Assembly (NCBI GenBank): GCA_963718915.1 | Contig: CAVRAI010000013.1 | Location: forward strand, 30,001 to 62,000 | Reading direction: 5' to 3' | DNA from: an uncultured Chloroflexia bacterium | Lineage (GTDB): Bacteria > Chloroflexota > Ktedonobacteria > Ktedonobacterales > JADMIN01 | Length of the DNA stretch: 32,000 nt | Part shown: piece by piece, positions 6,517-31,861 of the stretch | Layout: each line of letters opens with the position of its first letter | Numbering within the stretch: position 1 is the stretch's first letter | Program-made: the position numbers and the translations under genes | The notes under the pieces: generated by a model | Told to the model about the DNA's origin: nothing | Database searches by the model: none | What the model saw: the letters and a program-made list of their open reading frames with translations, nothing else

Positions 6517-6766
6517 GTGCTCCCCCTTCGTGATCACGCAATCATGTATCCTTCGGACGGAAGCCAAGCGCGCTCATTTACAGCTACTCGTGCGCAAAAA
6601 TACTGGGCGTGATGGACCGCCGCTGACATTCCTTAGTCTGAAGTCGGCGAGAGAAAGTAGAGAAGGTAGAGATGATCAGGTGTGGCAATGTGACATGATG
6701 CAGACCAGAGGCACTGCGAAGGGCAAAGACTGGTAAGGTGATACACAGCAGGGAAGGAGACGTCTG

Positions 6767-7369: not shown

Positions 7370-7552
7370 AGCACGGGACGCACCGCTCTTACGCTTTGGT
7401 TTGGCAGGGCGCCGACACCAGCCTTTGCCTAGGCATGACAAGGCCACGCTCGCCAGTCTGCGGACGTGGCCCCATGCCCATGCCCGTGCCCGGTGGCGTC
7501 ACCTGCGTCCATGCGAGTCGCCCAACCTCTCACTGGCACATGTGGCAGCGCA

Positions 7553-8776
7553 TCAGGACTTTCCGTCCAATGAATGTGCATAGTAATCGCGCCAGATCAG
7601 CCGGTGAATGCCCAGGAACCGTGGAAGTCGATTGACGAGCGGGATGTAGGGGACGATGATGAGCAGCAGGGTTAGTACTGCCATGGTCAACCACACAGCA
7701 ATATCGGCGTTTGGTCCATTGTAGGGACCAGCGGGCACCTGGTACCAGAACGTATAGAGCCAGAGCCACGCCTGACCAGGATAGAGCCCTGCGCTATTCA
7801 TCATGCCCCACTGATCACCTACCAGTTTGAGTTGGTCGGCGCGATCTGGGAGGGCCTTTTCGTTCAGGAAGAGCAGTGGTTTGGTGAAATCCGTCTGGTA
7901 GAACTTGCCATCGATAGTGAGCAGGTACCCATCTAATCCGCCGCTGCGCGCAAGGTCGAGCAGCGAATCGAACATAGTTGGTAACGGGCCGAACGCGGCA
8001 TCGTGGGCGCCGTTCAGGTGGCCGTTCGCATCCAGCGTTCCATTAGCCTTGTTGAGCGCGTCCGCATAGGCTGTTGTCCACGCGGTTTGCTGGTCAGCGG
8101 ATGCCCCGGTATAGGTCGCCACGGCCGATTTCACGTTTTCGCTCTGCACAGTATCCAATGGGCCGACCACGTACACTTGTGCCCCGTCGATGGGAATGGT
8201 CACGCCAGCGCTTTGCTGTGGAGAAATAGGGCCGACATTCTGAACGGGACCTGTCCCATTGTTGTACGGAGGGCCGTAGTCAGCTAGCGCACTCGTACCT
8301 GCCAGCTCGGAGAGCGCCACAGTGGTGAAGCCGAGAGGGTCAGCTGTTGCAACGCTTTTGAGCGTGAGCGCCTTCTCATCGGGCGACGAGAATATGCCAG
8401 CGAGCGCGACGACCAGGATGAGTGCGATTGCTGACATGATTACCAGTTCTTTCAGGATGTCAAAGTTCTGCATCTTGACACCACTGTAGTACTGCTCTTG
8501 CGTCATGCCGCGCGTGTACTTTACCGGCGTCTCGCCTCTGCGCGGATACGGTCGCACAACTCCCATGACCCGAACCAGCACAACATGGAGGCCGATCAGG
8601 CCGACGAGCGCCAGCGGCAGGAGAATCACATGGAAACTGTACATTTGGCCAAAATTCAGGACGTTGAAGAAGCCACCGATGCCAATCGAGTTCATTGCGT
8701 CTTTGGCTGAGACGCCTATCCACTGCGAATCAAAGTTGGTCTGCGATAAGTAGCCGGTAAATAACGAACACATCAT
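7553..8776 (-). CDS. cytochrome b-like membrane protein (QcrB-type), lacking helices A-C as an intact ORF
   Basis: FTGYLSQ..W, then helix D as FHVILLPLALVGLIGLH, with the two His 15 apart as in b6/QcrB-type cytochromes b. A TM segment, a large extracytoplasmic loop with YGPPYNNG, and a C-terminal TM follow. The ORF begins inside what should be helix C. Confidence 0.7.
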   Translation of the reverse strand: MMCSLFTGYLSQTNFDSQWIGVSAKDAMNSIGIGGFFNVLNFGQMYSFHVILLPLALVGLIGLHVVLVRVMGVVRPYPRRGETPVKYTRGMTQEQYYSGVKMQNFDILKELVIMSAIALILVVALAGIFSSPDEKALTLKSVATADPLGFTTVALSELAGTSALADYGPPYNNGTGPVQNVGPISPQQSAGVTIPIDGAQVYVVGPLDTVQSENVKSAVATYTGASADQQTAWTTAYADALNKANGTLDANGHLNGAHDAAFGPLPTMFDSLLDLARSGGLDGYLLTIDGKFYQTDFTKPLLFLNEKALPDRADQLKLVGDQWGMMNSAGLYPGQAWLWLYTFWYQVPAGPYNGPNADIAVWLTMAVLTLLLIIVPYIPLVNRLPRFLGIHRLIWRDYYAHSLDGKS

Positions 8777-8995
8777 TCACCACGTGCAATAAGCGCCGTT
8801 GGTTCAGCAAATATGTGCCGCGAAGAAGATCCACCTCACCTGGAAGACAGACCTATGGCTGAAGAATGACTGGTATTCACCACGAATTGCGCGCATTGCG
8901 CATCGCGAGAACATGCAGGAGTTGACGACGTGACATTGCGACACGCACGCGCTATCTATCCATTTCCGCGATTCCGGCTCCACCGACCTGACCAA
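8777..8995 (-). pseudogene. degraded 5' part of the cytochrome b-like gene (same frame, two in-frame TGA)
   Basis: It is in the same frame as 7553..8776. The translation ...SHRSVFQVRWIFFAAHIC*TNGAYCTW*MMCSLFTGY has two His 14 apart, as the helix B heme ligands are. The first TGA (8804-8806) falls where the conserved Arg follows the second His; the second TGA is at 8777-8779. The helix C region is too short and no hydrophobic helix A lies upstream. Confidence 0.45.
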
Positions 8996-9015
8996 TGCCG
9001 AATGGGATCTGCTGG

Positions 9016-10122
9016 TTAACTGTCTCGGGCTCCTGCTGCAATGGCGTAGCCTGGAGCGCTTACGAGGTATTCCCAGTGTCGATGCGCTGTGGGGCAGGCT
9101 GGTTGGGACAACACGAGGGTTGGAAGCGGGCTCCAGTCGAGTCGGGCGCCACCACCTCCATACCCGTCACAGGTGATCGATTCCCAATAGAGCAGAAGCG
9201 CTTGCGCCATAGATGGCGCGTGGACGATAACCTGTGCGCCCTCATTCCGCAGCGAGAGCGCCCGATTCGTTGGTATCTGCGGATCAACGTGAAAGGAGAC
9301 GGACGGCCAGCGCCCGTCAAGAGGGCTGGCTTGGGGAGGCACGTCTCGCATTCCGCCCATCGTGATCGTGACCTCTCCGCTCTTAGTCACCGGCAGAAAG
9401 GAATGCAGAGTCAGCGTCTGACCAGGCGCTACGGTGGTTTTGAACAATGGCAGAGCACAGTCTATGGCGAGCCTGGGCAAGGTGTAGGTAGGGGCGCTGC
9501 CTGCAGTGATTTGTGCGCTCAAGGCCGAGGAATCACAGGCGCTGTCTGGTTTGTTCCCTCCAGAGAGCGCAAGGGGCTGACTGGTTTGATTGGTCAGGCC
9601 AAGGTCGACGGAGATCAATTCACGCAGAAAGTAGGGGCCTGGTGTCACTATATGGATTGATGCTTGCATACCGTCGACTTGAGAGACGGCGGTCGGCCCT
9701 GTCGAGGCGTTTGGAGGCTGCACGCCAGAAGGTCGCACCGCGGATCTGAACAGCAAAAGTGTTGCGCCAACGAGGATCCCGATGACCAGAATCGCGGCCA
9801 GATCCCGCGCAGTACGCGCGAGACGCCTTCTTCGCGAGGGCGTGCTCAGGATACGTTGGGATCTGGTCTGACTGGCCTGACTGGCTTGACTGGTCTGAAA
9901 CGGGCGCTGGTCGTCAGGCGGTTCTTCCGCCTGAGCAGTACGAGCACCGCCTTGCAGCAAGCGTTCTTGCACACGAGCAATGATTCTCGATTGTTCCAGG
10001 GGGGTGACGCCTGCTGGTTCACGCAGGCCGTGGTGGAGCAGAGCAATGAGTTGTGTATAGGGTTCCTGGCGCTCTTCAGGGATTCTCTCGTTATTCCCAG
10101 CGTTGTTCCTAGGGTCATCCAT
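9016..10122 (-). CDS. putative anti-sigma factor, single-pass membrane protein with unknown extracytoplasmic domain
   Basis: The ATG is 2 nt after the sigma factor stop, with GGAGGAG inside the sigma gene end. Architecture: cytoplasmic N-terminus, one TM (LAAILVIGILVGATLLLF), then a roughly 240-aa C-terminal domain. I recognise no motif in that domain. Confidence 0.55.
   Translation of the reverse strand: MDDPRNNAGNNERIPEERQEPYTQLIALLHHGLREPAGVTPLEQSRIIARVQERLLQGGARTAQAEEPPDDQRPFQTSQASQASQTRSQRILSTPSRRRRLARTARDLAAILVIGILVGATLLLFRSAVRPSGVQPPNASTGPTAVSQVDGMQASIHIVTPGPYFLRELISVDLGLTNQTSQPLALSGGNKPDSACDSSALSAQITAGSAPTYTLPRLAIDCALPLFKTTVAPGQTLTLHSFLPVTKSGEVTITMGGMRDVPPQASPLDGRWPSVSFHVDPQIPTNRALSLRNEGAQVIVHAPSMAQALLLYWESITCDGYGGGGARLDWSPLPTLVLSQPACPTAHRHWEYLVSAPGYAIAAGARDS
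9863..9898. repeat. 9-bp tandem repeat x4 inside the anti-sigma candidate
   Basis: The copies are ctggtctga, ctggcctga, ctggcttga and ctggtctga. On the minus strand they encode TSQASQASQTRSQ. Confidence 0.9.
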
Positions 10123-10124
10123 AG

Positions 10125-10802
10125 CTATTCTCCTCCCTCGTCCTGCTCGTAGAGCTGACGTATCCGACGCAGTGTGCGAGAGAGCAGCTTGCGCACCGTT
10201 CCCTCGGGTTTTCCGAACCGCTCTGCAATTTGGGTCAGCCGCAGGTCATGCCCGTAACGCAGCCGAAGCAATTCCTGCTGGATCGGAGGAAGTTGTCCAA
10301 TCACATGCGAGAGGCGCTCGTACGCCTGCCGTCGCTCGACCAGTTGTTGGGGAGTCAATTCCTCATCGGCCGTCTCTCTGGCTTGATCCAACGGTACCAG
10401 GGCCAAACGGGTTATGTGACGGTAACGGTCAATAGCCTTATTCCGCGCGACCCGGCGCAGCCAGGCCAGTTGTTGCCGAGACGGAAGGTTTAGGAGCAGG
10501 TCGCTGTTGAAGGCGGCCAGGAACACCTCTAAGAGCAGGTCTTCGGCATCTTGCGTATTTGACACCATCTCGCACAGATAGACCAGGATCGTCTGGGCAA
10601 AATCGCTGTAGAGGGCGCTTTTCTTTGCGCTTTGTAGGTCATCTTGCGTGAGATGGCGCATGCTTGTTCCTTGATAGGTGATGTCGCAGAGATAATCTCG
10701 TAGCAACTCGCTATAAATAAGATCGTTTGAAGGGGGGAAACGCGGCAAAGGAAGCCCAGAAACATCTTCATGACTCGGTGCTTCACCAGAAGACTCGGCC
10801 AC
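10125..10802 (-). CDS. RNA polymerase sigma-70 family, ECF-type sigma factor
   Basis: Region 2 is DAEDLLLEVFLAAF. Region 4 HTH is LPPIQQELLRLRYGHDLRLTQIAERFGKPEGTVRKLLSRTLRRI. The start is uncertain: the first 47 codons are AT3-rich, and Met48 (10661) would give a typical ECF length. Confidence 0.85.
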   Translation of the reverse strand: MAESSGEAPSHEDVSGLPLPRFPPSNDLIYSELLRDYLCDITYQGTSMRHLTQDDLQSAKKSALYSDFAQTILVYLCEMVSNTQDAEDLLLEVFLAAFNSDLLLNLPSRQQLAWLRRVARNKAIDRYRHITRLALVPLDQARETADEELTPQQLVERRQAYERLSHVIGQLPPIQQELLRLRYGHDLRLTQIAERFGKPEGTVRKLLSRTLRRIRQLYEQDEGGE

Positions 10803-11145
10803 TCAACCGTGTTCCCAAACCCTTACTTGACGTTCTAGGGCCTGTCTGACGAAGCATGTGCGGTTCGTCAAGGATGGAAGGATGGCGCCGAACGGCCGGA
10901 CCAAGGCGCAGCGCCCACTGCAGCTTGGCAGCGGGAGCGCGATGGCTCTCCACGCCTCCGCAGTCAATGCGCCGCGTCCTGGCATCTCGCGCCTGCCTCG
11001 TTCCGCCCTCGTCCAGTACGAGGGTAACATCTCTTGCGGTCGTTGACAGACAGGCTGTAGGCTGGTGAGGTGGACGCTTGTGCGGGCGGAATGGGAGCAT
11101 GGTCTGTCGCTCCCGCTACACCCAAGTTGAGTTCAGGAGCGTACG

Positions 11146-11634
11146 ATGCGGCAAGATGAACTGACGTTGACGCCGTTTTACCAGGGATGGGATACCTACC
11201 AAGCGGCGCTCGTTCGGGCGATTGCGCCCTTATCAGAGGAGCAGCTCGCGTTGCGCGCCGTCCCCTCGCTGCGCCGGGTGTGGCTGCTGGCGGCGCATAT
11301 CATCGGGTCGCGGGTGAGTAGCTTTCAGGACTCCATGGGAGAGGGAGATCCCGCCCTCGCCGCCCTCGAATCCTGGGATGCAGACGGCGCGCCACCGCGC
11401 ACCGCCGCCGAACTGGTTCAGGGATTGGAGGCGACGTGGCAGATGATGCGCGAGTGCCTCGACCACTGGACGCCAGACAATCTGGCCGACACCTTCGTCG
11501 AGCAGCAGGGCGAGCAGACCTACACCTATACGCGCCAGCGGATCATCTGGGGGATTCTCAAGCACGACCTGCACCACGGCGGCGAGCTGTTCCTGACGCT
11601 CGGCATGAATGGCCTGCCTACACCAGACGTGTAG
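11146..11634 (+). CDS. DinB family (DinB/YfiT-like four-helix bundle) protein
   Basis: 162 aa with the C-terminal HDLHHGGEL metal-binding signature of the DinB_2 superfamily. AGGAG lies 6 nt upstream. Confidence 0.85.
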   Translation: MRQDELTLTPFYQGWDTYQAALVRAIAPLSEEQLALRAVPSLRRVWLLAAHIIGSRVSSFQDSMGEGDPALAALESWDADGAPPRTAAELVQGLEATWQMMRECLDHWTPDNLADTFVEQQGEQTYTYTRQRIIWGILKHDLHHGGELFLTLGMNGLPTPDV

Positions 11635-11891
11635 CGATTGCCATCCAGATAGCCAGGATGACCTCTCCACCAGGACAAGCGCCTGCCTGACGACCGACGG
11701 TGACAAGGTAATGGGCGTCGCGCAAGGTGTGTCGCAGGTGGGCAGCGAGGGCTGGGGGGAGGGTCTGCGCGTTCATCACGGCTGTTTTGGCCCGTTCGGC
11801 TTTTGGCGCTTGGGGCGCTCAATGTTACCATGGCACAATGGGGTGGTAGACTGAACCCCTGGCGAATCGATTAGAGAGAGCAGCGATAGCA

Positions 11892-12584
11892 ATGAGGCGC
11901 CGATTCTCCTACCTGCTCGCACTCTCGCTCGTCGGCCTTTTCGTCGGTCTGTCCATCACGGGCTGCGGACCCGTGATGGCGGGAACAGCTCGTACGAGCG
12001 ACGGTTCGCCGCCAGCGACGGTATTCGCCAAAACTGACAGCACTCCAACGCCTTCACTGCCTCCAACTACTTCAACGCCTCCCTCTCAGGCTGCCGCTAG
12101 TCCTACCCCGACGCATGCATCTCAATCTCACGTCGCGCCCACGTCGGCGAGCGGCCTTGTTCCCACTCCTGCTCCTGCGAGCTTCGCCAGCCGCGCGCTC
12201 GCCAGGACGAACGCCTACCGCAGCCAGTTCAACTGTCCACCGCTCCATGAAAACGCGCAACTCGACCAAGCCGCGTTCGCGCATAGCCAGGATATGGCGT
12301 TGCATGGCTATTTCGACCACAACAGCCCCGCTGGCCAGACCCCGTGGGATCGTATACATGCCGCGGGCTACCAGTTCTCTATGGCCGCGGAGAATATCGC
12401 CGCTGGCTATCCGACGCCCGAAGCCGTCATTGACGCCTTCTTCCACGAGACGCCGCCCAATGATGGCCACCGCCGCAACCTGCTCAACTGCGCGCTGCGA
12501 GACGTCGGCTTCGCGTACTTCTATCAAAAGGGCAGCGCGTACGGCTCCTACTGGACCCAGGACTTCGCGACACCGCTCTCGTAG
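11892..12584 (+). CDS. CAP (SCP/PR-1, YkwD-like) domain lipoprotein
   Basis: Signal peptide with lipobox SITGC, then a Pro/Thr/Ser-rich linker. The CAP domain segments are AHSQDMALHGYFDHNSP, ENIAAGY and GHRRNLL. Confidence 0.85.
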   Translation: MRRRFSYLLALSLVGLFVGLSITGCGPVMAGTARTSDGSPPATVFAKTDSTPTPSLPPTTSTPPSQAAASPTPTHASQSHVAPTSASGLVPTPAPASFASRALARTNAYRSQFNCPPLHENAQLDQAAFAHSQDMALHGYFDHNSPAGQTPWDRIHAAGYQFSMAAENIAAGYPTPEAVIDAFFHETPPNDGHRRNLLNCALRDVGFAYFYQKGSAYGSYWTQDFATPLS

Positions 12585-12610
12585 GTCTCGTAGGTCTCGC
12601 AGGTCTCGCA
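12578..12610. repeat. 9-bp tandem repeat (gtaggtctc x2, gcaggtctc) containing the CAP gene stop codon
   Basis: The TAG stop at 12582-12584 lies inside copy 1 and is duplicated in copy 2. Confidence 0.9.
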
Positions 12611-19303: not shown

Positions 19304-20123
19304 CGGCGATCAGACTGATCGCCAGTGCAACGATCGTGGTGTTGTAGACGAATGAGAGCAGTGCATGGACCAATACCACCCGCCGCATGCGCTGTGTAGT
19401 GACGCCGGTGTCCGATGTCTGGAAGGCCATGCCAATGGTGAACGCGAAGTAGGCAAAATCGATGTCGTTCGGCGGCACGCCAGCAAATGCTAAGCCGCTC
19501 GCCTGGCTGTCCGCCGGGGTCTCCGCCTGGTTATCGGCGCCAGCATAGTTGGCATAGTTGGCATAGTAATACAGGTGCGCGTAGCGCATCGTGTACGCGG
19601 TATGCAGTAGCAGCCATGAAGAGGCGATCGCGACAATCCCGAGTACGAGGTCCAACGCGGTTTGTGCCGTAGAGGTACCAGGGACTTCAGGACGCAACAA
19701 CCAGACCGCGGCGACGAGGCCAGCAATGCTGACGAGCAGCCTGATGAGGCCGAAGGTCGTACGACCGGGAAAGTCCGCAGCCGCTCGTTGGCGCGTCTGC
19801 TGGGAGTTGGACGTGAGGATGATGAGCCAGGGATGGAGGAGCGAGCAGAGCATTGCAACGTCCAACGCCGCGCCCAGCCGCACACTCCATCCCTGGCCCA
19901 ACGGGTTGAGCAGGGCGAGAACCAGGCCAAAGATGGCCCCGATTGCCAGACCGAGCCCCGGCTCAAGATGAGCCATCAGCGGTAGTTTGCGGGGAGGGAA
20001 CGTCGCCGCCCCTCGTGCTCGGGTTTCGCTCACCACTTGGCCTCCTCGTCGCTGCGGATGCGTGTCCCTCGCCCGCAGAAAACTTCCTCGCTGCGGCATG
20101 AAGGGGTGACCTGTGTCTGCCAT
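19293..20123 (-). CDS. DUF1345 domain membrane protein
   Basis: LLHTAYTMRYAHLYY and the FAYFAFTIGMAFQTSD...LLSFVYNTTIVALAI segments are typical of DUF1345. The start is uncertain: Met50 at 19976 would give the usual size, but no clear Shine-Dalgarno precedes any candidate. Confidence 0.75.
   Translation of the reverse strand: MADTGHPFMPQRGSFLRARDTHPQRRGGQVVSETRARGAATFPPRKLPLMAHLEPGLGLAIGAIFGLVLALLNPLGQGWSVRLGAALDVAMLCSLLHPWLIILTSNSQQTRQRAAADFPGRTTFGLIRLLVSIAGLVAAVWLLRPEVPGTSTAQTALDLVLGIVAIASSWLLLHTAYTMRYAHLYYYANYANYAGADNQAETPADSQASGLAFAGVPPNDIDFAYFAFTIGMAFQTSDTGVTTQRMRRVVLVHALLSFVYNTTIVALAISLIAGRL
19543..19569. repeat. 9-bp tandem repeat x3 inside the DUF1345 gene
   Basis: gcatagttg x2 plus gcatagtaa. 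It encodes YANYANYA. Confidence 0.85.
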
Positions 20124-23062: not shown

Positions 23063-24004
23063 GTGAACACGACCATCAACACGACAAGCCACGGTGAAGA
23101 GCAGAAGAAACCCAACGTGGGCTTCATCGGCATGGGGCACATGGGCAGCCGCCTAGCCGCGCGCCTCCTCGACGCAGGCTACCCCCTCACGGTCTACGAC
23201 CGCACGCCCGAGCACACGCAGCCGCTTGCCCAGCGCGGCGCTAAGACCGCAGCCACCCCCGCCGAGATAGCGTCGGTGTCCACCATTGTCTTATCCAGCC
23301 TTGCCGACGATGCCGCCGTGGAAGCGGTGCTGCTCGGCCCAGAGGGCGCCGTTGCGGCGGCTCGCCCCGGCACAACCTTCATCGAGATGAGCACCATCCT
23401 GCCGGAGACGTCGCGCAAGCTCGCTGCGGCCGCACAAGAACATGGGCTAACCGCGTTGGACGCCGCCATATCCGGCAGCACACCCCAGGCGGAGGCGGGT
23501 ACGCTCGTCGTGCTCGTCGGTGGGGAGCAGGCGGCCTACGACCGCTGCCTGCCGGTCCTCTCGGCGCTTGGCCAACGCGTGTTCTACATGGGCCAAAGCG
23601 GGATGGGCACAACGATGAAGCTGGTCGTCAACACGCTGCTGGGCGTGGACATCCAGGTACTGGCGGAGGCCGTCTCCCTAGGCGAAAAGGCGGGCCTGGA
23701 GAAAGGACGTCTTCTCGACGTGCTCGGCCAGACGGCCGTGATTTCGCCCCGTCAGAAACTCGCCATGGAGAACGTCCGGCGGGAACACTATCCCGTCACC
23801 TTCGCACTCGAGCTCATGCACAAGGACTTCGGGCTGATCTTGCGTGAGGCGGAGGCGCTGCGTGTCGCGATGCCGGTGACGGCGGCTGCCGAGCAGGTCG
23901 CCACCGTCGAGCTGTCCAGCCGGGCGGGTGGTGATATCACAGAAACGATCCGCTGGATGGAGGAGCTGGCGGGGGTGCTAGCACCGGAAGGGACGACGAG
24001 GTAA
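23063..24004 (+). CDS. NAD(P)-dependent oxidoreductase, beta-hydroxyacid (3-hydroxyisobutyrate / 6-phosphogluconate) dehydrogenase family
   Basis: VGFIGMGHMGSRLAARLL dinucleotide-binding motif, then GTTMKLVVNTL and a downstream helical domain. The apparent start is a GTG at 23063. Confidence 0.85.
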   Translation: MNTTINTTSHGEEQKKPNVGFIGMGHMGSRLAARLLDAGYPLTVYDRTPEHTQPLAQRGAKTAATPAEIASVSTIVLSSLADDAAVEAVLLGPEGAVAAARPGTTFIEMSTILPETSRKLAAAAQEHGLTALDAAISGSTPQAEAGTLVVLVGGEQAAYDRCLPVLSALGQRVFYMGQSGMGTTMKLVVNTLLGVDIQVLAEAVSLGEKAGLEKGRLLDVLGQTAVISPRQKLAMENVRREHYPVTFALELMHKDFGLILREAEALRVAMPVTAAAEQVATVELSSRAGGDITETIRWMEELAGVLAPEGTTR

Positions 24005-24052
24005 GCTAATCAATCAATGGACATGCGGCCGCAAACACGCCTGGCGTACTAA

Positions 24053-27000
24053 TTAAGTGTTTGAAAGGCCTTCTTTGCTAGGTTTGTGCCAGGCGAGTGA
24101 GCAGAAGCCGGATGCCGAATGTGCGGATGCATTCTTTCGCACGCCGATGAGCTGGAAGGCCCAGAGGGAGCGGTACCAGCGGACGCGCTCCAGGCGACCA
24201 ACGGCGACCAGGTAGCGGGCGTCACGCAGGGTGCGGCGCAGGTCGTGGGCGAGGGCAGGCGCCATGGCCAGGGGGAGGCGTCCCGTCTCATCCTCCAGGA
24301 CTACGAAACCGACGCCTTTGGCGGTTGGTGGGCGTTGGGCGGAGATGGGCCAGCCCGCCACACGCACAACCCGCCCCTCCGCCACGTGTGCCAGATCGGA
24401 GATGCGCAACACCCCCCGGCGATCCAGTTGCGGGCGGTAATGGCGCATCGGATGTGGGCGTGTGGAGAGGCCGAGCAGCTGGTAGTCCAGCGCGTCACGC
24501 TCAAAGGCCGTGAGGGCTGGCAGGGTGGGGACATCCGCGAGCGCATCGAGTGGCATCTCCCAGGTGAGGGTCAGTTGTTGCGGATGTTCGGCAGTTGTAT
24601 CTGCCATGGCCGTGGCATTGCTGCGGCGTCGCTTCGCGCCTTTGGGATGGGGGTCTACCAGTGGCCAAAGTTCGCGGAGTTGCCAGAGGCGTTGCCGCCG
24701 GTCCATGCGCGGGGCGAGGCCGTCGCAGGCGCCTGACCAGACGAGCGCTTCAGCGGCGTCACGGGTGAGTCCAGCGGGACGGAGGCGGACGAGCAGATCC
24801 CAGAGCGAGGTAAAGGGGCGCTCGTGGAGGTGGCCGGACTCGTCGAGGGTACGACGTTCCCACAGGATGGCGCGCGCGAGATCCTCGCCGATCTGGCTGA
24901 CCTGACGCAGCCCAACCCGAATGCCCCAGCGCCTCCCACCGGGCGCATGTCCACTCCCTACGCTGCCAGCGGGTTCCACCGAGAAGCGGTCCTCACTGGC
25001 GTTCACATGCACGGGGAGAACGGGGATGCGGAGGCGTTTCGCCTCCTCCAGCACCACATGCGGCGGGAAGTAGCCCGCGGGTTGGGCGGAGAGGAAGGCG
25101 GCGAGATAGTGGGCGGGGTAGTGCGCCTTGAGCCAGGCGGTCTGGTAGATGGTGCGGGCAAACTCGGCGGCGTGGCTTTTGCAGAATCCGTAGCCAACGA
25201 AGGCGGAGACGGCCTCGAAGACACGATCCGCCGCCTCGTGTGTCTCGCCACGGGCCAGCGCGCCCCCGACGAAGCGCTGGCGCATCGCCTCCATCTCGCG
25301 GCGGCTGCGCTGGTGGGACATGGCGCGGCGGAAGCCATCCGCGTCGGCGTAGCTCAGCCCAGCGAAGCGGTGGGCAATTTCAAGGATCTGCTCCTGGAAG
25401 AGCAGGATGCCCTCGCTCTCGGCCAGGATGGGGCCGAGGACGGGGTGGGCCGTCCAGAAGTCGTCGGTTGGCGTGCCCTTCCAGGGGGTCTGCACGGCAT
25501 CTCGCTGTTGCCGAATATAGCGCGCCGCCTGTGCGCCCTGCGCAGATTGCTTGGAGTCTTGGGCCTGCTTGTCCAGGCGGCGTTCGATGTAGGGATGGAC
25601 GAAGCCGCCCTGGATGGGGCCGGGGCGAAAGAGCGCGGTCTGGACGATGAGATCGTTGAAGGTGGTGGGCTGAGTCTGGGCGAGCAGATGCCATTGGCCG
25701 GGACTCTCGATCTGGAAGACCGCCAGCGTCTGGCCGCTGCGGATGAGGGCCATCGTGCGCGGATCAGGGGGCGTGGTGGGCAAATGGTCGATGTCGGGCC
25801 GCTCGCCAGTGGTTCGCTCGATAAGGGTGAGCGCCTCCTCGACAGCGCCGAGGGTGCGCAGGCCCAGCAGGTCAAACTTGATGAGGCCGAGACGTTCGAC
25901 GTCGTCTTTATCGATCTCCAAGGCGCGCACGCCATTGGCTGAGACGCGCACGGGCAGCAAGGTGGCCAGCGGCTCACGGGTGAGCACCATGCCGCCGTTA
26001 TGGAGGCTGAGGTGGCGTGGCAAGCCGAGGAGCTTCGGAGCGATCTGTAGCAGGAGGGGCAGCCGTTCCAGGCAGCGAGCGCGGACAGATGCGTTGGGGA
26101 GCGTAGAGAATGTGGCGATAACCTGGCGTAGCTCGCTTTCGTGGCTGAGCAACTCCTCGGCGTCGGCGTGGTGTGAGAGCCGTTTGGTCATGCGGTTGAC
26201 CAGTTCCAGGGGGTAGCTGAGGGCTTTGGCGGCGTCGCGCAGGGCACTCCTGGCCCGGTAGGTGATGACATTGGCGACCATAGCGGCGTGGGCCTCGCTG
26301 TAGGTGCGCTCGACGTAGCGGATCAGTTCGTCGCGGCGGTCGGACTGGACATCGACATCGATATCGGGCATGCCGCCGCGGTCAGGGTTGAGGAAACGCT
26401 CGAAGAGGAGCTTATGGTGGATCGGGTCAACGCCAGTGATGCCCAGGCAGTAGGCGACCAGACTATTGGCGGCGCTGCCCCGACCGCTGACGCGGATGCC
26501 CATGGCGCGGGCGGCGTGCATGATGTCGTGGACGCAGAGGAAGAATTCTTCAAGCTGCAATTGCGCGATAACGGACAGTTCGTGGTCGAGTTGTGTGCGC
26601 TGGGGGCTGCCGGGGAGCAGCGCCTCAGGTAGATTGGCATAGCGGGTTGCGAGGCCGGACTCGCTGAGGGCGCGCAGATGGGTAGTGGGTGTTGCGCCCT
26701 CTGGCAGGGAGACCTGGGGCGCGGTGCAGGCGCCTTTGAGCAGAGAGAGGTGACAGCGCGTTGCGATCTCGCCGCTGGCGCGCAGGGCGGCGCGGCCTTG
26801 GGGAACGCGCGCAAAGAGGGATGCCAGCGCGCGCGCGGACTTGAGGTGCGCCTCGTCGTTGCGGGGGCGTTCGGCGTGGGGCTGATCCACGGTGAGGCCG
26901 AGGCGCGTACAGGTCATGAGGTCGTAGAGGGCGCAGTCGGCGCGGGATGCGTAGTGCACCCCATTGGTGGCGACGTAGCGGAGACCTGCCTCCTCGGCGA

Positions 27001-27646
27001 GCTCGGCAAGTTGATGGAGCAGGATCAGGGTATCGGGCAGCTTGTGGTGTTGCAGCTCGACGAAAATCCGGTCAGGCCCGAAGGCGTCATAGTAGCGACG
27101 CGCGGCCTCCATGGCGGCCTGGCGCCTGCCCGCGAGCAGGAGTCGCATCAGGGTTCCGTCACGTCCGCCGGTGAGCAGGATCAGACCGTCTGGTTCCGCG
27201 GCCAAGTCTCGCCAGGGGATGACTGGGGCATCGGGGTGGGCGAGGTTGGCGTCGGTGAGCAGGCGGCAGAGTCGAGCATAACCGGTGGCGTTCTCGGCCA
27301 GTGCGACGGGGTGGGTGGGGAGAGGCGAGATGCCGAAGATGGGTTCGGCAACGGCTAGCTCTACGCCGATGATGGGCTGAATGGCGTATGAGGCGCAGGC
27401 GGTTTGGAAGCGGACGACGCCAGCGAGGGTCATGTGGTCGGTGAGGGCGAGGCTGCGCATGCCGAGCGCAGCTGCCCGCGCGACCAACGCCTCAGGCGAG
27501 GAACTGCCACGGAGGAAGCTGAACGCGCTGGCCAGGTGCAGCTCGACGTAGGCAGTGTGGGCGTTACGGTTGGTGGCAGGATGCTGGTCGGCATGATGTG
27601 TAGCGAGCGTATTAGGCGTATCACTCAGGTCAGTCAGGTCAGTCAT
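24053..27646 (-). CDS. dnaE2: error-prone DNA polymerase III alpha-type subunit DnaE2
   Basis: PHP domain YVELHLASAFSFLRGSS...LALTDH, polymerase core segments (PDIDVDV, GLIKFDLLGL, FQIESPG, YGFCKSHA) and an OB-fold region. I place the start at the ATG at 27644-27646 (MTDLTDL), which overlaps the upstream small ORF by 8 nt. The track start 27841 lies inside that ORF. Confidence 0.9.
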   Translation of the reverse strand: MTDLTDLSDTPNTLATHHADQHPATNRNAHTAYVELHLASAFSFLRGSSSPEALVARAAALGMRSLALTDHMTLAGVVRFQTACASYAIQPIIGVELAVAEPIFGISPLPTHPVALAENATGYARLCRLLTDANLAHPDAPVIPWRDLAAEPDGLILLTGGRDGTLMRLLLAGRRQAAMEAARRYYDAFGPDRIFVELQHHKLPDTLILLHQLAELAEEAGLRYVATNGVHYASRADCALYDLMTCTRLGLTVDQPHAERPRNDEAHLKSARALASLFARVPQGRAALRASGEIATRCHLSLLKGACTAPQVSLPEGATPTTHLRALSESGLATRYANLPEALLPGSPQRTQLDHELSVIAQLQLEEFFLCVHDIMHAARAMGIRVSGRGSAANSLVAYCLGITGVDPIHHKLLFERFLNPDRGGMPDIDVDVQSDRRDELIRYVERTYSEAHAAMVANVITYRARSALRDAAKALSYPLELVNRMTKRLSHHADAEELLSHESELRQVIATFSTLPNASVRARCLERLPLLLQIAPKLLGLPRHLSLHNGGMVLTREPLATLLPVRVSANGVRALEIDKDDVERLGLIKFDLLGLRTLGAVEEALTLIERTTGERPDIDHLPTTPPDPRTMALIRSGQTLAVFQIESPGQWHLLAQTQPTTFNDLIVQTALFRPGPIQGGFVHPYIERRLDKQAQDSKQSAQGAQAARYIRQQRDAVQTPWKGTPTDDFWTAHPVLGPILAESEGILLFQEQILEIAHRFAGLSYADADGFRRAMSHQRSRREMEAMRQRFVGGALARGETHEAADRVFEAVSAFVGYGFCKSHAAEFARTIYQTAWLKAHYPAHYLAAFLSAQPAGYFPPHVVLEEAKRLRIPVLPVHVNASEDRFSVEPAGSVGSGHAPGGRRWGIRVGLRQVSQIGEDLARAILWERRTLDESGHLHERPFTSLWDLLVRLRPAGLTRDAAEALVWSGACDGLAPRMDRRQRLWQLRELWPLVDPHPKGAKRRRSNATAMADTTAEHPQQLTLTWEMPLDALADVPTLPALTAFERDALDYQLLGLSTRPHPMRHYRPQLDRRGVLRISDLAHVAEGRVVRVAGWPISAQRPPTAKGVGFVVLEDETGRLPLAMAPALAHDLRRTLRDARYLVAVGRLERVRWYRSLWAFQLIGVRKNASAHSASGFCSLAWHKPSKEGLSNT
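27625..27645. repeat. 9-bp tandem repeat at the small ORF stop / dnaE2 start overlap
   Basis: tcaggtcag x2 plus tca on the + strand. The minus strand reads ATG ACTGACCTG ACTGACCTG, encoding MTDLTDL, and includes the TGA of the upstream ORF. Confidence 0.85.
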
Positions 27647-27941
27647 AGACACGTTCCAGGATCCACACTTCGCCGATAGCCTCGTAGTAGATGTCGCAGA
27701 CGAGGTCTTCATGCGCGGAGGCGCAGCGTAGTCGGTAGTAGGTGCGCTCACTGCGGCCCTTGTGATCCTTGCGATCCTTGCCCCCTGCGCCACGTACGCT
27801 GTGCTGCTCCCACCAGCGATCCATGAGGCGCCACGGCTCATTGACCTCCAGCACGCGGTAGGTGAGGCCGCGCCAGTGGATGGTGGCGGGCTTGCCGTCG
27901 GCGAGTGTCACCCTGATGGGGTGGTAATAGACGTGGGTCAT
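27639..27941 (-). CDS. small conserved-looking protein of unknown function between imuB and dnaE2
   Basis: 100 aa from the ATG at 27941, with GAGGTGAT upstream. MTHVYYHPIRVTLADGKPATIHWRGLTYRVLEVNEPWRLMDRWWE...RTYYRLRC..EDLVCDIYYEAIGEVWILERVYD has a beta-rich, Trp/Tyr-rich pattern. It starts 30 nt after the imuB stop, and its TGA overlaps the dnaE2 ATG (TATGACTGA). It may belong to a DUF family associated with Y-family polymerase / dnaE2 loci, but I cannot verify that. Confidence 0.65.
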   Translation of the reverse strand: MTHVYYHPIRVTLADGKPATIHWRGLTYRVLEVNEPWRLMDRWWEQHSVRGAGGKDRKDHKGRSERTYYRLRCASAHEDLVCDIYYEAIGEVWILERVYD

Positions 27942-27970
27942 GGATATATCACCTCGTATCGCACCGTCTC

Positions 27971-29296
27971 TTACCACCGATGGATGCCATGGGGGATCTC
28001 GTCCGAAGCATCATCGGTGTCAGAGTCGGCGACATCGGCGGCGGGGCGCGCAGGATGCCCCAGTCCTTCAGCCACATCAGCCAGGTCGGCCACATCGGCG
28101 CCCAGGGGTGCGAGACGGGAGCGGTCCTGGTCGAAGATAGCGTCGGGGGCGGTGAGCAGGCTCTGAAACAGGAGGGGCTTGCCGTGGCGACGGGCGAGGA
28201 GGTCGGCAAGCTCCTGAGTGGCGGTGATGCGGCGGGCGCGTTGGGGCCAGAAGGCATGTTGCGCGGGATAGCGCGGAGTGAGATGAGAGACGATGAGATG
28301 TAGATCCTCGATGGCTTCATGGGCATGAACGCGGGATTGAAAGAGCGGGGCAAGCATGCGTTCCAGCGTCTCCGTCAGGGCATGGCCACCGGAGAGGGGT
28401 TGTGGGAGTGTGCGCGTGATCGTGGTGATGCGCTCGGCATTGCCCTGGGAGTTGGCCGTTGATCCACCCTCCCAGTAGAGACGCAGTTCCAGCGTGTGTC
28501 CGTGGAGGCCACGGCGCGCGAGACGAGATGCGACCTCACAGGAGAAGGGCGCCAGGCCGAGCAGCAGACGGTCAGGGGTGACGGGGGCCGTCAGGCGGAG
28601 GCGGAAACGCAGATGTAGTGGCGCAGCCGTGGGCTGGAGGGACAGGGGATCCTCACCGCGAGCGATGGTGGCGAGCAGGACGCCGAGGTGGGCGCCGAAC
28701 TGGCGACGGAGATCGTTTTCGTCGAGCCGCGTGAGGTGCAGGAGGGTACGGGCGCCATAGTCTTCCAGCCGGGAGACGGCCTGGGCGAGCGTGTGAGGAG
28801 TAAAGATGGTCGGGTTGGCGAATTGGAGATGTTCGAGCGCGGCGATGGGCAGGCGGCGTAGCAGGTCGGCGGTCTGCTCACGGGTCAGAACGGTCACTGG
28901 CGCAGGTGTGCGCAGCAGGTCTACGAGGGCGAGCTGGGCGAGGATGCCGCTGGGGGCAATGGCGGCGCGTAGCGTGATCCGCTGGTTGGCCAGGCGGGTG
29001 ATGAGCGCCTGGACGACGGCGACGGCCTCGGTGTCGGTGCAGGGTCCGAGGTCAAGGAGGGCGCTGTCGTCTCCGAACCGCTGGAGGTATGGCGTCAGCT
29101 GATAGCAGGCGGTGAGCCACGCGGGCCATTGATCGTCGCCGACGTGTTTTGTGTGCGAGAGGCAGCGGACCCAGGCCAGGTGGCGGGAGACACCAGCCTC
29201 TGATGAGAGAGACGAGAGAGACGAGAGAGACGAGAGAGATGCTTGGGAAGATAGAGCAGCCAGGAAATCAGGCTTTCTCGTAGGCATTGTCGGCAC
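27971..29296 (-). CDS. imuB: ImuB-like catalytically inactive Y-family DNA polymerase
   Basis: Y-family thumb/HhH and little-finger patterns are present: AAIAPSGILAQLA, LLRRLPIAALE, LRRQFGAHLGVLLATIARGEDP. The acidic catalytic DxD/E palm residues are absent. The track ORF begins with a TTG at 29377, which is the -35 of the predicted promoter. I place the start at the GTG at 29296 (GGGGAAGGGGAG 9 nt upstream) or the ATG at 29287. Confidence 0.75.
   Translation of the reverse strand: MPTMPTRKPDFLAALSSQASLSSLSSLSSLSSEAGVSRHLAWVRCLSHTKHVGDDQWPAWLTACYQLTPYLQRFGDDSALLDLGPCTDTEAVAVVQALITRLANQRITLRAAIAPSGILAQLALVDLLRTPAPVTVLTREQTADLLRRLPIAALEHLQFANPTIFTPHTLAQAVSRLEDYGARTLLHLTRLDENDLRRQFGAHLGVLLATIARGEDPLSLQPTAAPLHLRFRLRLTAPVTPDRLLLGLAPFSCEVASRLARRGLHGHTLELRLYWEGGSTANSQGNAERITTITRTLPQPLSGGHALTETLERMLAPLFQSRVHAHEAIEDLHLIVSHLTPRYPAQHAFWPQRARRITATQELADLLARRHGKPLLFQSLLTAPDAIFDQDRSRLAPLGADVADLADVAEGLGHPARPAADVADSDTDDASDEIPHGIHRW
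29205..29240. repeat. 9-bp tandem repeat x4 in the imuB N-terminal region
   Basis: gagagagac x3 plus gagagagat. It encodes SLSSLSSLSSLSS on the minus strand. Confidence 0.9.
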
Positions 29297-29331
29297 AGGC
29301 AGCGTCTCCCCTTCCCCATATCGTTGAACAA

Positions 29332-29343
29332 GAACATCCGTTC
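29332..29343 (-). promoter_or_regulatory. LexA-type SOS box (Cheo-box core GAAC-N4-GTTC)
   Basis: The + strand reads a GAAC atcc GTTC c at 29331-29344, a perfect palindromic core. It lies 6 nt downstream of the predicted -10 of the imuB operon promoter. Confidence 0.6.
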
Positions 29344-29349
29344 CACTAG

Positions 29350-29377
29350 AGTATCGGCGCGGGGGGATGGCGGTCAA
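29350..29377 (-). promoter_or_regulatory. sigma70-like promoter of the imuB - small ORF - dnaE2 operon
   Basis: The minus strand reads TTGACC (29377-29372), a 16-nt spacer, then GATACT (29355-29350). Confidence 0.5.
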
Positions 29378-29380
29378 GCG

Positions 29381-29400
29381 ACAGAGACGGACAGAGACGG
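29381..29400. repeat. 10-bp tandem duplication (acagagacgg x2) immediately upstream of the imuB promoter -35
   Basis: Perfect copies at 29381-29390 and 29391-29400. Confidence 0.85.
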
Positions 29401-29751
29401 CGACTGCGTTGTTGGAAGCGGAAAGTCGTGGGCTGGACTGTCGAGAGATGTAGGGAGCTGGGACTTGCTGAGGATGATAGGAGCTAGCGAGGGGAGACCG
29501 AGGAATTGAGCGCCGTCACTTAGAGTGTGGAGCATGGCAGAGTTACAACTCTCTGAAGTCTTTTTGCCGTCGAGGGTCGCAAACGTTGACTGGTTCTGTA
29601 GAATGATGCTGACGAACAAGCAGCGATGAGTGTTGAGATGATGCGACGCATGCGATGCACATGCAGTGATGCACAGGCAGTGGTGAGATTCGCCAGGCCG
29701 TTTATGACGCTTGACGTGGCATCCTCGTGGGTTGAAGTGAGTCTCGTGCGA

Positions 29752-29770
29752 GAGGAGAGAGGAGAGAGGA
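29752..29770. repeat. 7-bp purine repeat (gaggaga x2.7) forming the ribosome-binding region of the 29772 gene
   Basis: The sequence is gaggaga gaggaga gaggat, directly followed by the ATG at 29772. Confidence 0.8.
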
Positions 29771-29771
29771 T

Positions 29772-30668
29772 ATGGGCAGGGAGCAGGCGTATTCCTCAGA
29801 GTTGTCGCAGTACCTTGATGGCGCCATTGCCGATGCTGAGAAACAGCGCGCAAGCGCCACCCAACCGACATCTGCCCAAGCTGGCGGAGTTGTCGGGGAA
29901 GCGGTCACAATGACCGTATGGGACTCGATGCGAGCAGCACTGAGTCGCGCTGTGCGGCGTTCCCTCCTGAGGACAATTGTCGCACTCTTTCCGCTCCTCG
30001 CGCTTGTGGCCAGTACAGCATTGCAGGCATTTGGGCAGGGCGCGCTGTGGACTATCCCGGCGCGTGTGGTCCTGACCGGACTGACGCTCTTCCTGCTCTG
30101 GCATGCCTGGCAAGTCGTACGTTACGTGCGGGGAAGAATGCCCCAGCGCCTCCTGCGACGGCGTGTGCAGCCTGGTCGTTACTATGAACCACCTACCGCG
30201 TCGGAGATGTTCATGCCGCTCATCGTTGGAGTTCTTGACCTGCCTGCATTGCTGAGTCTCTCCTTCGCTGTGAGTCAGCCACATCTCGTGCTCGCCGCTC
30301 TGATAGCACTTCCGGTAGTGGTCTTGGTCCTTGTTACAGTGGTCATCGCCGCCGTGTCGGGTTTCGGCGCTGTTGGGGCGGTTGGAGGGCTCGATCAGGT
30401 GTCACATGCGCCAGCTCGACCTGTGTCGGTGGCCTCGTTGGCTGCGTTGGACGAGCGGATTACGCGTCTCTCGCAGATACGCGAATGGCTAGGTGACGAC
30501 ACGCTCCGAGCGATGGTGGACGATGTGATTGGGCAACAGGTGAGGTCAGCGGCGAGACGACAGGTGACGTTTTCGTTTCTCATTGGGGTTATTTCGTTGG
30601 TGTCCGGATGGTTGCTCTCTGCGGTGAGTCCTGTCGCGACGCTGACCAACCTTTTTCCGGGACGTTGA
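29772..30668 (+). CDS. hypothetical multi-pass membrane protein
   Basis: 298-aa ORF preceded by a GAGGAGA x3 tract. It has four or more hydrophobic segments (IVALFPLLALVASTALQAF, VVLTGLTLFLLW, LVLAALIALPVVVLVLVTVVIAAV, FSFLIGVISLVSGWLL). I recognise no family. It is divergent from imuB. Confidence 0.6.
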   Translation: MGREQAYSSELSQYLDGAIADAEKQRASATQPTSAQAGGVVGEAVTMTVWDSMRAALSRAVRRSLLRTIVALFPLLALVASTALQAFGQGALWTIPARVVLTGLTLFLLWHAWQVVRYVRGRMPQRLLRRRVQPGRYYEPPTASEMFMPLIVGVLDLPALLSLSFAVSQPHLVLAALIALPVVVLVLVTVVIAAVSGFGAVGAVGGLDQVSHAPARPVSVASLAALDERITRLSQIREWLGDDTLRAMVDDVIGQQVRSAARRQVTFSFLIGVISLVSGWLLSAVSPVATLTNLFPGR

Positions 30669-30940: not shown

Positions 30941-31861
30941 ATGTCTGGCATCACCAATTGGAGCGAGGCCCTGGCTGATCCCTGCTTTTGGGTCGGCCGC
31001 TATGCGCAAAATCGTCCTGGGGACAGGGACGTGGAGAAGGATATCGAGGCGTTTTTTGGGCGTTCATTTGAGGCCTGCGAACCGTTTCATCTGCGTCTGT
31101 ATGGAAACATTGATTACGACACGCCGCTGTTCGCAGACGATGCGGACGATGAGACGGAGCCGCCTGCTTCTCCCGATGAGGAGTATGACTACAGTGACTA
31201 TGATGACCAGATCCCACCGACGAGCATCCTCAGACTGCCCTTCCCCGAAAGCTATACCTGGCAGCTAGAATTTGCCGATTACCAGGTCACTCATCTGATT
31301 TATCATCCTGAGGTGTATCCTGGCGGTCGTGCAATCGCGGTGGAGGGTCACACGAGTCTCTTGCCTGGCTTGCGCTGGGCTGAATTGAAGCAGATGGTGG
31401 CCTGCCTCTTGCCACCGGACTGGTCGCCGGTGTTTGACCCGCACATCCTGTATCCACTACTCTACCCCATCGTCGATCCGGTCACGTTGGCTGAGTATGA
31501 CGAGGTGCGCCAGACGCTGCGCGCGGCCTGGGGAGCCTTGCGGATTGTGCCTCCATTGCAGCTTGAGCCGTGGCTCGATGTGAGAATCAACGTCTTTGAG
31601 AACGGTCGTCTGTTGGCCCACGACGAGACGCTGGAGTGGAACGATCGCGCTACGCGACGCGCTCCAGCAGACATCCAAGATCCCAAAGTCATCGAGACTG
31701 ACTGGACAGTTGTCGCAGGAGATATGTGGGCTCGTGACCCCGATGGTGGTTGGTTTATCCACTGGCCGGTCTGGCAACCGGCGACCTCGCGCACCAATGA
31801 TGCTGGCAGCTTCGCGCCTTTTTTCGAGATGTTGGAGCGCCAGACGCAGCCTCACTCGTAA
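30941..31861 (+). CDS. hypothetical cytoplasmic protein with an acidic linker
   Basis: 306-aa ORF with GC3-biased codons. It has an acidic DDADDETEPPASPDEEYDYSDYDD linker and a Trp/Pro-rich C-terminal domain. I recognise no motif. Confidence 0.55.
   Translation: MSGITNWSEALADPCFWVGRYAQNRPGDRDVEKDIEAFFGRSFEACEPFHLRLYGNIDYDTPLFADDADDETEPPASPDEEYDYSDYDDQIPPTSILRLPFPESYTWQLEFADYQVTHLIYHPEVYPGGRAIAVEGHTSLLPGLRWAELKQMVACLLPPDWSPVFDPHILYPLLYPIVDPVTLAEYDEVRQTLRAAWGALRIVPPLQLEPWLDVRINVFENGRLLAHDETLEWNDRATRRAPADIQDPKVIETDWTVVAGDMWARDPDGGWFIHWPVWQPATSRTNDAGSFAPFFEMLERQTQPHS

Follow-up and report, generated by a model that had tools for sequence, protein, structure and literature searches.

The 32,000-nt stretch of DNA analyzed here (referred to as the window; contig CAVRAI010000013.1 of assembly GCA_963718915.1) comes from an uncultured Chloroflexia bacterium of the order Ktedonobacterales and carries a 100-amino-acid (aa) gene, here called imuB-C, between a gene for a Y-family polymerase homologue (PolY) and dnaE2. 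We conclude, with a probability of roughly 0.88, that imuB-C encodes the stand-alone C-terminal domain of a split ImuB within an iPolY-ImuB-C-DnaE2 cassette that is controlled by a LexA box, and that its product is a noncatalytic adaptor by analogy with canonical ImuB. The original prediction, which was made from the sequence alone, had described the gene as an unknown open reading frame (ORF). The ORF in fact belongs to Pfam family DUF6504, which is the ImuB-C domain, and the stand-alone form has been described since 2013 (PMC3765255, PMC6511836, PMC8072749, PMC12926913).

The imuB-C frame lies on the minus strand, begins with ATG at 27941, and ends with TGA at 27641-27639 (product MTHVYYHPIRV…WILERVYD). 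The ATG is found 30 nt beyond the PolY stop codon (TAA, 27973-27971), which leaves a spacer of 29 nt. All of the sequence statements made in the original prediction were correct, including the 100-aa ORF, its Shine-Dalgarno sequence, the 30-nt distance, the 8-nt overlap with dnaE2, and a 9-bp duplication within the gene. The product matched PF20114 (DUF6504) at residues 13 to 98 of 100 with an E value of 6.4e-8 and 33.2 bits, compared to a gathering score of 24.2. No NCBIfam model matched the ORF. Among 5.8 billion proteins searched, we identified 57 close homologues of 72 to 164 aa with 34 to 82% identity, every one of them stand-alone. Nearly all of these have a precomputed PF20114 match, and several, one of them from Ktedonobacterales, are labeled “DUF6504 family protein.” When 1.84 billion cluster representatives were searched with a profile, 722 matches had an E value of ≤1e-3, and nearly all of the best 150 were stand-alone proteins of 80 to 130 aa.

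A scan of GTDB genomes yielded 31 related loci, nearly all from Ktedonobacterales or uncultured Chloroflexia, in which identity to imuB-C ranged from 31 to 82%. Pairwise comparison of the window with the three closest orthologous loci (Nei-Gojobori) gave a ratio of nonsynonymous to synonymous substitution rates (dN/dS) of 0.13 to 0.28, so the imuB-C frame is conserved and under purifying selection. Because the Pfam match exceeds the gathering score, close and distant homologues number 57 and more than 700, respectively, and dN/dS is low, imuB-C is not a chance ORF but a real small gene with its own translation, as the original prediction had proposed. The prediction had also named an alternative in which dnaE2 begins at the in-frame ATG at 27841 and imuB-C is no gene at all, its region being a DnaE2 N-terminal extension read in the other frame. 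The dnaE2 frame is indeed open back to this codon in the window. However, stops close that frame within a few codons of the junction in five related loci (L009, L011, L014, L016, and L019), and the protein started at 27646 is similar to DnaE2 only from about residue 31 on, where the PHP domain starts. These observations, added to the Pfam match and the conservation of imuB-C across loci and homologues, led us to reject the 27841 start as almost certainly wrong.

ImuB-C is the conserved C-terminal domain of ImuB and is also found as a stand-alone protein beside translesion polymerases (Aravind et al. 2013, PMC3765255; Timinskas and Venclovas 2019, PMC6511836). In a full-text search, the literature did not use the name DUF6504, and the papers were reached via “ImuB-C.” Two checks suggested in the original prediction, a profile-profile search and a search for fusions of the domain to the C terminus of ImuB, were both positive. 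A Paracoccus plasmid carries a canonical operon whose genes are annotated as a damage-inducible protein (imuA-like), a Y-family polymerase of 506 aa, and an error-prone polymerase. This Paracoccus ImuB matched PF20114 at aa 431 to 501 with an E value of 4e-4. Its last 112 aa retrieved 258 proteins; among the best 120, the names “protein ImuB” and “DNA polymerase Y family” are common, and PF20114 is present in most. Natural IMS_C-DUF6504 fusions were also found (P0169 and P0220). When the alignment of stand-alone proteins was compared to that of canonical ImuB C termini using hhalign, the two profiles matched with a probability of 92.3% and an E value of 5.5e-7. Five other candidates from the search were set aside. 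The long DUF6504 matches in P0191 and P0238, composed of 8 to 12 short stretches, were low-complexity artifacts, while P0168 (DUF6504 with PHP), P0185 (transposase with DUF6504), and P0258 (DUF6504 with a response regulator) appear to be chimeric gene calls in which the domains are truncated. Family membership of the imuB-C product as a stand-alone ImuB C-terminal domain protein is therefore clear at the level of sequence.

For the split itself, the last 115 aa of each Ktedonobacterales PolY were joined to the ORF downstream of it, and the resulting profile was compared with that of the canonical ImuB C terminus. The two were collinear across the gene junction over 173 columns, with a probability of 91.4% and an E value of 9e-7. 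At the junction, the PolY end (…vP..lHWW followed by the stop) and the start of the downstream protein (MTHxY..PI.V) pair with canonical …WP.HWPRPSRLL..PEPIE. Because this alignment is collinear, PolY and ImuB-C together correspond to one ImuB, with the break falling exactly ahead of the first strand in the C-terminal barrel.

The gene upstream had been called imuB in the original prediction. It is not a canonical imuB but the ImuY-like half of a split ImuB, lacking ImuB-C. PolY, a highly divergent Y-family homologue, gave only weak Pfam matches to IMS_C (little finger) and to the thumb and weak NCBIfam matches to Pol IV, with no match to the Pfam IMS palm. In a phmmer search of the PDB, PolY showed no more than marginal similarity to the REV1 thumb. 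As a group, the 22 Ktedonobacterales PolYs matched Escherichia coli DinB with a probability of 95% (hhalign). In that alignment, the catalytic D103-E104 pair of DinB is replaced by D-S in the window PolY and by variable nonacidic residues in the 21 others. Having lost the conserved Asp-Glu pair, PolY is predicted to be an inactive “iPolY.”

The PolY tail contains a conserved segment that is predicted to be helical, E(L/V)A..LA.RHG.p.LL (ELADLLARRHGKPLLF in the window), followed by PDAIF.EER and, in the window, a terminal PhgIHRW. The segment resembles published RecA-NT-like strings (…LELRMGTPPLFRVE in Dehalogenimonas and …IEKQFGKGSIM in RecA; PMC6511836 supplement), a likeness of strings only. 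The tail after this RecA-NT-like segment is of the ...PERRY/EER... type, as in the published Dehalogenimonas iPolY. Eighteen of the 22 Ktedonobacterales PolYs (window tail at 27971-28330; loci L002 to L030) end in ..vP..lHWW, which aligns with WP.HWPRP of canonical ImuB just before the barrel. The PolYs that end otherwise are those of L008, L012, L015, and L024, and in the first three of these the stop codon of PolY and the start codon of imuB-C share an ATGA. The HWW tail could tether the two halves of ImuB to each other. Near the other end of the protein, a perfect 9-bp repeat (3.9 copies, 29205-29239) encodes SLSSLSSLSSLS close to the PolY N terminus and is mostly missing from L002 and L003.

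The order PolY, imuB-C, dnaE2 on one strand, tightly spaced in the window, is repeated in 22 related loci. In 23 of the 31 loci, dnaE2 lies downstream of imuB-C on the same strand, and PolY is also upstream in 22 of these 23; in the 23rd (L026), the upstream sequence is too short to judge. A Deinococcus plasmid is annotated with lexA, a Y-family polymerase, a DUF6504 protein of 81 aa, and dnaE, with matching overlaps. A Pfam scan of 24 window proteins, a set that took in all long ORFs near the cassette, found no imuA, recA, or lexA. The dnaE2 product is complete, with the Pfam domains PHP, DNA_pol3_alpha, finger, HHH_6 (HhH), and OB, and its best NCBIfam match is NF004225 (“error-prone DNA polymerase,” 870 bits). 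It has similar pairwise identity (36 to 41%) to the DnaE2 proteins of ImuA-type and of ImuY-type operons. Its N terminus before the PHP domain (~30 aa) is poorly conserved among the loci, and its first codons (MTDLTDLSD, 27621-27645) are formed by a 9-bp tandem repeat of CCTGACTGA (2.8 copies) that begins inside the imuB-C overlap.

The sequence tATGACTGA contains both the imuB-C stop codon and, at 27646, the ATG with which the dnaE2 frame begins. Counting the window, 14 loci (13 of them related loci) have this [CT]ATGA[CT]TGA junction with its ATG in frame with dnaE2; spacers in the remaining loci are short. Overlap by ATGA between PolY and imuB-C occurs in four loci. No good Shine-Dalgarno sequence precedes the dnaE2 ATG. 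The original prediction had regarded this geometry as typical of translational coupling with stoichiometric production of both proteins. The geometry is present and recurs in the other loci, and since the junction is conserved and the dnaE2 ATG has no good Shine-Dalgarno sequence of its own, coupling of dnaE2 translation to that of imuB-C is a reasonable reading of the sequence. Coupling of this kind might also set the stoichiometry of the two products.

Upstream of PolY, a promoter scan of both strands identified a single sigma-70-like site within 23800-29900 (Table 1). The perfect palindrome located 6 nt downstream of its −10 element is the sole exact GAAC-N4-GTTC in the window, and this motif is the SOS/LexA box of the Bacillus subtilis type (PMC4234289). 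The longest PolY ORF starts with TTG at 29377. Since this TTG is part of the −35 hexamer, the real start of PolY is probably GTG at 29296, with GGGGAG 9 nt upstream, or ATG at 29287. The related loci (407 kb) contain 23 exact boxes, where ~6 would be expected at equal base frequencies, so the clustering of boxes at gene 5′ ends is far above chance. Fourteen of the 23 are located at the 5′ end of PolY, and this position is kept in 14 loci counting the window (13 related). In seven other cases the box precedes an imuB-C gene by 43 to 161 nt; six of these seven genes are solitary, their loci having neither a PolY nor a dnaE2 match. Given the arrangement of promoter and box in the window and the box positions across loci, the cassette operon is very likely SOS regulated.

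Structure prediction had been recommended in the original prediction, and an AlphaFold2 model of the imuB-C product, built with 43 homologues, is all-beta with seven strands (mean predicted local distance difference test score [pLDDT] of 81; 62 residues at 90 or above). Searches of the PDB identified no relative, either by sequence with the family profile (one chance match, to ETV6, at an E value of 1.1) or by Foldseek with the model (best E value of 0.84; template modeling score of <0.35). ImuB-C has been described as a beta-barrel of apparently novel fold and not as an SH3-like barrel (PMC12926913). The negative PDB searches and the all-beta model agree with that description, beyond which the Foldseek result is uninformative. 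Conserved positions in the family are W23, R24, W37, L39, D41, W44, R66, Y68, R70, and W93, together with the C-terminal …R(V/I)(Y/H)D. In the homologue alignments (A1 and A2), W23, W37, W44, R66, R70, and W93 are invariant, and R24 is invariant or nearly so. No His/Asp/Cys/Ser catalytic pattern is found at the conserved positions, in line with the original prediction, which had recognized no catalytic motif. These residues match the earlier description of ImuB-C as having a conserved C-terminal Trp, basic residues, and no catalytic pattern (Aravind et al. 2013, PMC3765255).

The original prediction had also singled out the basic KDRKDHKGR loop, which is encoded by the 9-bp repeat units CAAGGATCG/CAAGGATCA/CAAGGGCCG (27781-27758). 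This did not hold up as a conserved or functional element. The repeat falls within residues 44 to 61, where pLDDT is below 50, and no other region of ImuB-C differs among homologues in length and composition. Other lineages carry different repeats at the same site (for example, APSTAPSTAPSTAPSIAPSIAPSI in L020; EADASEADAS in L014). Independent expansions are seen in L020 (6592-6936, APST/APSI six times), L014 (4880-5197, EADAS twice), and L017 (7001-7339, PGQPG rich). Since low-complexity and tandem-repeat growth has occurred independently in several lineages, the site has been expanded recurrently. Judging from these sequences, the loop is a tolerant insert site with no conserved basic motif. 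The 9-bp repeat is also not special to this gene, as 15 exact 9-bp tandem duplications occur in the window. We therefore rejected both the basic loop and its repeat as a functional motif.

The cassette most likely works as follows. DNA damage would lead to LexA cleavage and to co-production of iPolY, ImuB-C, and DnaE2 from one transcript, with the ATGACTGA overlap coupling dnaE2 translation to termination of imuB-C. ImuB-C, likely a small β-barrel adaptor by analogy with canonical ImuB, would dock onto DnaE2's PHP domain, and the iPolY thumb would contact DnaE2. The RecA-NT motif of iPolY would bind RecA, replacing the missing ImuA, and the assembled complex would perform error-prone lesion bypass. 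The proposed contacts are based on two-hybrid data for canonical ImuB, as cited in PMC6511836, and on published AlphaFold models (PMC12926913). The latter include “DnaE2X-iPolY-ImuBC-RecA” complexes from two Chloroflexi, with Sphaerobacter among those modeled. According to work cited in PMC6511836, the C-terminal region of ImuB is essential and binds both DnaE2 and ImuA′. Descriptions of a stand-alone ImuB-C located between iPolY and DnaE2 have been published (PMC3765255, PMC6511836, PMC12926913), and the order LexA, iPolY, ImuB-C, DnaE2 is reported for Dehalogenimonas, a member of the Chloroflexi (PMC6511836 supplement). In Deinococcus deserti and Deinococcus ficus, ultraviolet mutagenesis requires the cassette proteins ImuY and DnaE2 (PMC8072749).

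Several points weigh against the adaptor cassette as we read it. Stand-alone ImuB-C has had no experimental test in any organism, and its role is listed as open (PMC8072749). The contact between ImuB-C and PHP comes from published AlphaFold models, and a search for solved or cryo-electron microscopy structures found no mutasome in the PDB. Our own chimeric AlphaFold2 model of the PolY tail with ImuB-C gave no confident contact, with a tail pLDDT of 40 to 60. The absence of ImuA was checked within the 32-kb window only, and the region of PolY with the N-terminal catalytic Asp (D8 in DinB) could not be reliably aligned. Lastly, the solitary imuB-C genes with no polymerase neighbor show that the domain can act outside a DnaE2 operon.

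These solitary genes also bear on the proposal first made by Aravind et al. (2013, PMC3765255) that ImuB-C is mainly a DNA-binding or damage-sensing module that detects stalled structures or lesions and guides the nearest repair enzyme rather than a dedicated DnaE2 adaptor. Such a role would suit the SOS-box-linked copies without a polymerase neighbor (imuB-C is present in up to five copies per genome when all copies are counted). It would also suit the conserved Arg and Trp residues (R24, R66, R70, W23, W37, W44, and W93) with no catalytic pattern, and the published contexts with Pol IV, Ku/ligase, and SplB (PMC3765255). The published AlphaFold models, however, place the barrel on DnaE2's PHP domain and on ImuA, not on DNA (PMC12926913), the two-hybrid data for the canonical ImuB C terminus (cited in PMC6511836) are protein-protein contacts, and linkage of imuB-C to dnaE2 is tight and often overlapping. 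We consider a mainly sensing role unlikely, and the sensor and adaptor roles are not mutually exclusive. A third reading, in which ImuB-C is a regulator or brake that masks the DnaE2 PHP domain or competes with the replicative polymerase and the solitary paralogues are decoys that tune the mutasome, appears very improbable. The multiple SOS-regulated paralogues per genome, the association of some DnaE2 groups with ImuB-C alone (PMC12926913), and the hypervariable loop, which could confer partner specificity, would be compatible with it. Yet the domain is required for mutagenesis in canonical ImuB (cited in PMC6511836), which is a positive role, and inhibition has no direct evidence anywhere.

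Like other stand-alone ImuB-C proteins (D. deserti Deide_1p01890, 80 aa, and Geobacter GSU0042-like), the imuB-C product is in the small size class (80 to 130 aa), is all-beta, and has a C-terminal Trp and basic residues. As in Deinococcus, its gene is directly upstream of dnaE2 and overlaps it, follows a Y-family polymerase that is inactive, and stands under putative SOS control, here judged by the box sequence only. The cassette differs from that of Deinococcus in that the window operon has only the operator and no lexA as its first gene. Compared to known stand-alone ImuB-C proteins, the Ktedonobacterales subfamily stands out by the loop joining strands 4 and 5, which is long, hypervariable, and prone to repeats, by an invariant C terminus (...W.L(E/D)R(V/I)(Y/H)D), and by a modest Pfam score (33 bits). 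With the published iPolY-ImuB-C-DnaE2 cassette, the window shares the three genes, their order and strand, loss of the Asp-Glu pair from PolY, and a LexA box, and no imuA was found among the window proteins scanned. Ktedonobacterales are not listed as carrying the system in the published tables, where the single representative, Ktedonosporobacter rubrisoli, has a DnaE2X count of 0 (PMC12926913).

As with the canonical ImuA(ImuA′)-ImuB-DnaE2 mutasome of Mycobacterium, Caulobacter, Pseudomonas, and Paracoccus, SOS-induced, DnaE2-dependent translesion synthesis and mutagenesis would be expected here on a dead Y-family scaffold with an ImuB-C barrel. In contrast to canonical ImuB, two polypeptides are made, with the cut before the first barrel strand (HWW and stop, then MTHxY, versus HWPRPSRLL..PEPIE). 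ImuA is not among the nearby genes, and its presumed substitute is RecA (after PMC6511836). Because a stop and a 29-nt spacer split PolY from ImuB-C and no imuA is adjacent, we believe that the pair works like ImuB but that the window has no canonical ImuB gene. UmuD′ and YolD-YqjX of the Pol V-type mutasomes offer an analogous role, being small beta-rich accessory subunits that are co-expressed with a Y-family protein under LexA, but ImuB-C has an unrelated fold, no autoproteolysis motif, and the C-family DnaE2 as its partner.

The family, its stand-alone form, the cassette, and the split-ImuB reading have all been published already (Aravind et al. 2013; Timinskas and Venclovas 2019, 2026; and the work on Deinococcus), and the example in the window leaves the current understanding of the split-ImuB system unchanged. 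What is new here is small: the cassette in Ktedonobacterales, the conserved overlap junction, a defined split point, the …HWW tail of PolY, and the SOS-box-linked solitary paralogues. The junction, split point, HWW tail, and B. subtilis-type box could guide biochemistry on the assembly of the ImuB halves with DnaE2. Annotation pipelines may label the gene just “DUF6504” or “hypothetical,” and the link from DUF6504 to ImuB-C and the split-ImuB mutasome gives it a testable role in damage-induced mutagenesis.

The six solitary imuB-C genes behind their own exact GAAC-N4-GTTC box are those of L007, L010, L018, L021, L022, and L025, with the gene at ~7001 in most. In the three loci whose neighbors were examined (L007, L018, and L025), the adjacent genes are unrelated (TPR, HIT, metallo-beta-lactamase, and HTH). 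Of the five copies of imuB-C in the metagenome-assembled genome MFD02579.bin.2.68, only one is in a cassette. In L018, a short remnant of the DnaE2 C terminus (aa 1111 to 1168) followed by a partial second imuB-C (aa 63 to 100) occupies 8445-8730, 3′ of the solitary gene, and looks like a decayed or rearranged cassette. One could speculate that ImuB-C in Ktedonobacterales is an expandable family of SOS-induced small proteins, with one copy coupled to DnaE2 and up to four solitary ones, most of those examined with their own LexA box, that differ mainly in the repeat-prone loop. The solitary proteins could then serve the DnaE2 PHP domain, or other repair enzymes, as exchangeable adaptors or as competing decoys. 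We regard this as a long shot, although, if true, it would be an undescribed, tunable layer of control over induced mutagenesis.

Table 1. Features of the cassette in the window, with the basis for each assignment.
Feature	Position	Strand	Basis
dnaE2, error-prone C-family DNA polymerase, 1197 aa	24053..27646	minus	Pfam, NCBIfam
8-nt overlap ATGACTGA, dnaE2 start within the last codons and stop of imuB-C	27639..27646	minus	Read from sequence
imuB-C, separately encoded ImuB C-terminal domain (DUF6504/PF20114), 100 aa	27639..27941	minus	Pfam, homologues, hhalign, dN/dS, AlphaFold2
9-bp tandem repeat, 2.7 copies, encoding KDRKDHKGR in the disordered loop (residues 44-61)	27758..27781	minus	Tandem Repeats Finder, period 9
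Shine-Dalgarno sequence GAGGTGAT of imuB-C	27948..27955	minus	6 nt before ATG 27941, read from sequence
Predicted catalytically inactive Y-family homologue (iPolY/ImuY-like, N-terminal half of split ImuB)	27971..29296	minus	Pfam, NCBIfam, hhalign
Putative LexA operator (SOS box), perfect palindrome GAACGGATGTTC, GAAC-N4-GTTC type	29332..29343		Exact-match scan
Sigma-70-like promoter, −35 TTGACC (29377-29372), 16-nt spacer, −10 GATACT (29355-29350)	29350..29377	minus	Promoter scan

Elsewhere in the window, a full-length SRAP gene (SOS-response-associated peptidase; PF02586, E value of 5e-62) is located on the plus strand at 6767-7369, ~17 kb from the cassette, with no GAAC-N4-GTTC box near it at up to one mismatch. 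Two ORFs with no Pfam match are divergent from the cassette on the plus strand, one at 29772-30668 (298 aa, membrane-like) and the other at 30941-31861 (306 aa, with an acidic N-terminal region). In L001 (ERZ25039458 contig_47359), SRAP fragments are found directly 3′ of dnaE2. The L001 cassette (6599-11975) is broken into many short calls, with PolY and DnaE2 each spread over several frames and imuB-C intact; the broken frames are probably long-read frameshift errors.

The 15 exact 9-bp tandem duplications in the window compare with 1, 2, and 0 for periods of 8, 10, and 12, respectively, and with ~0.1 expected by chance. Examples are found at 1109-1146, 9863-9898, 12577-12608, 19543-19567, 27621-27645, 27758-27781, and 29205-29239. 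No comparable excess is seen in the related Ktedonobacterales loci, and L002 and L003, the closest relatives, lack these duplications altogether. One idea is that the duplications in the window might be footprints of a transposon with a 9-bp target duplication, or else the product of slippage specific to this genome.

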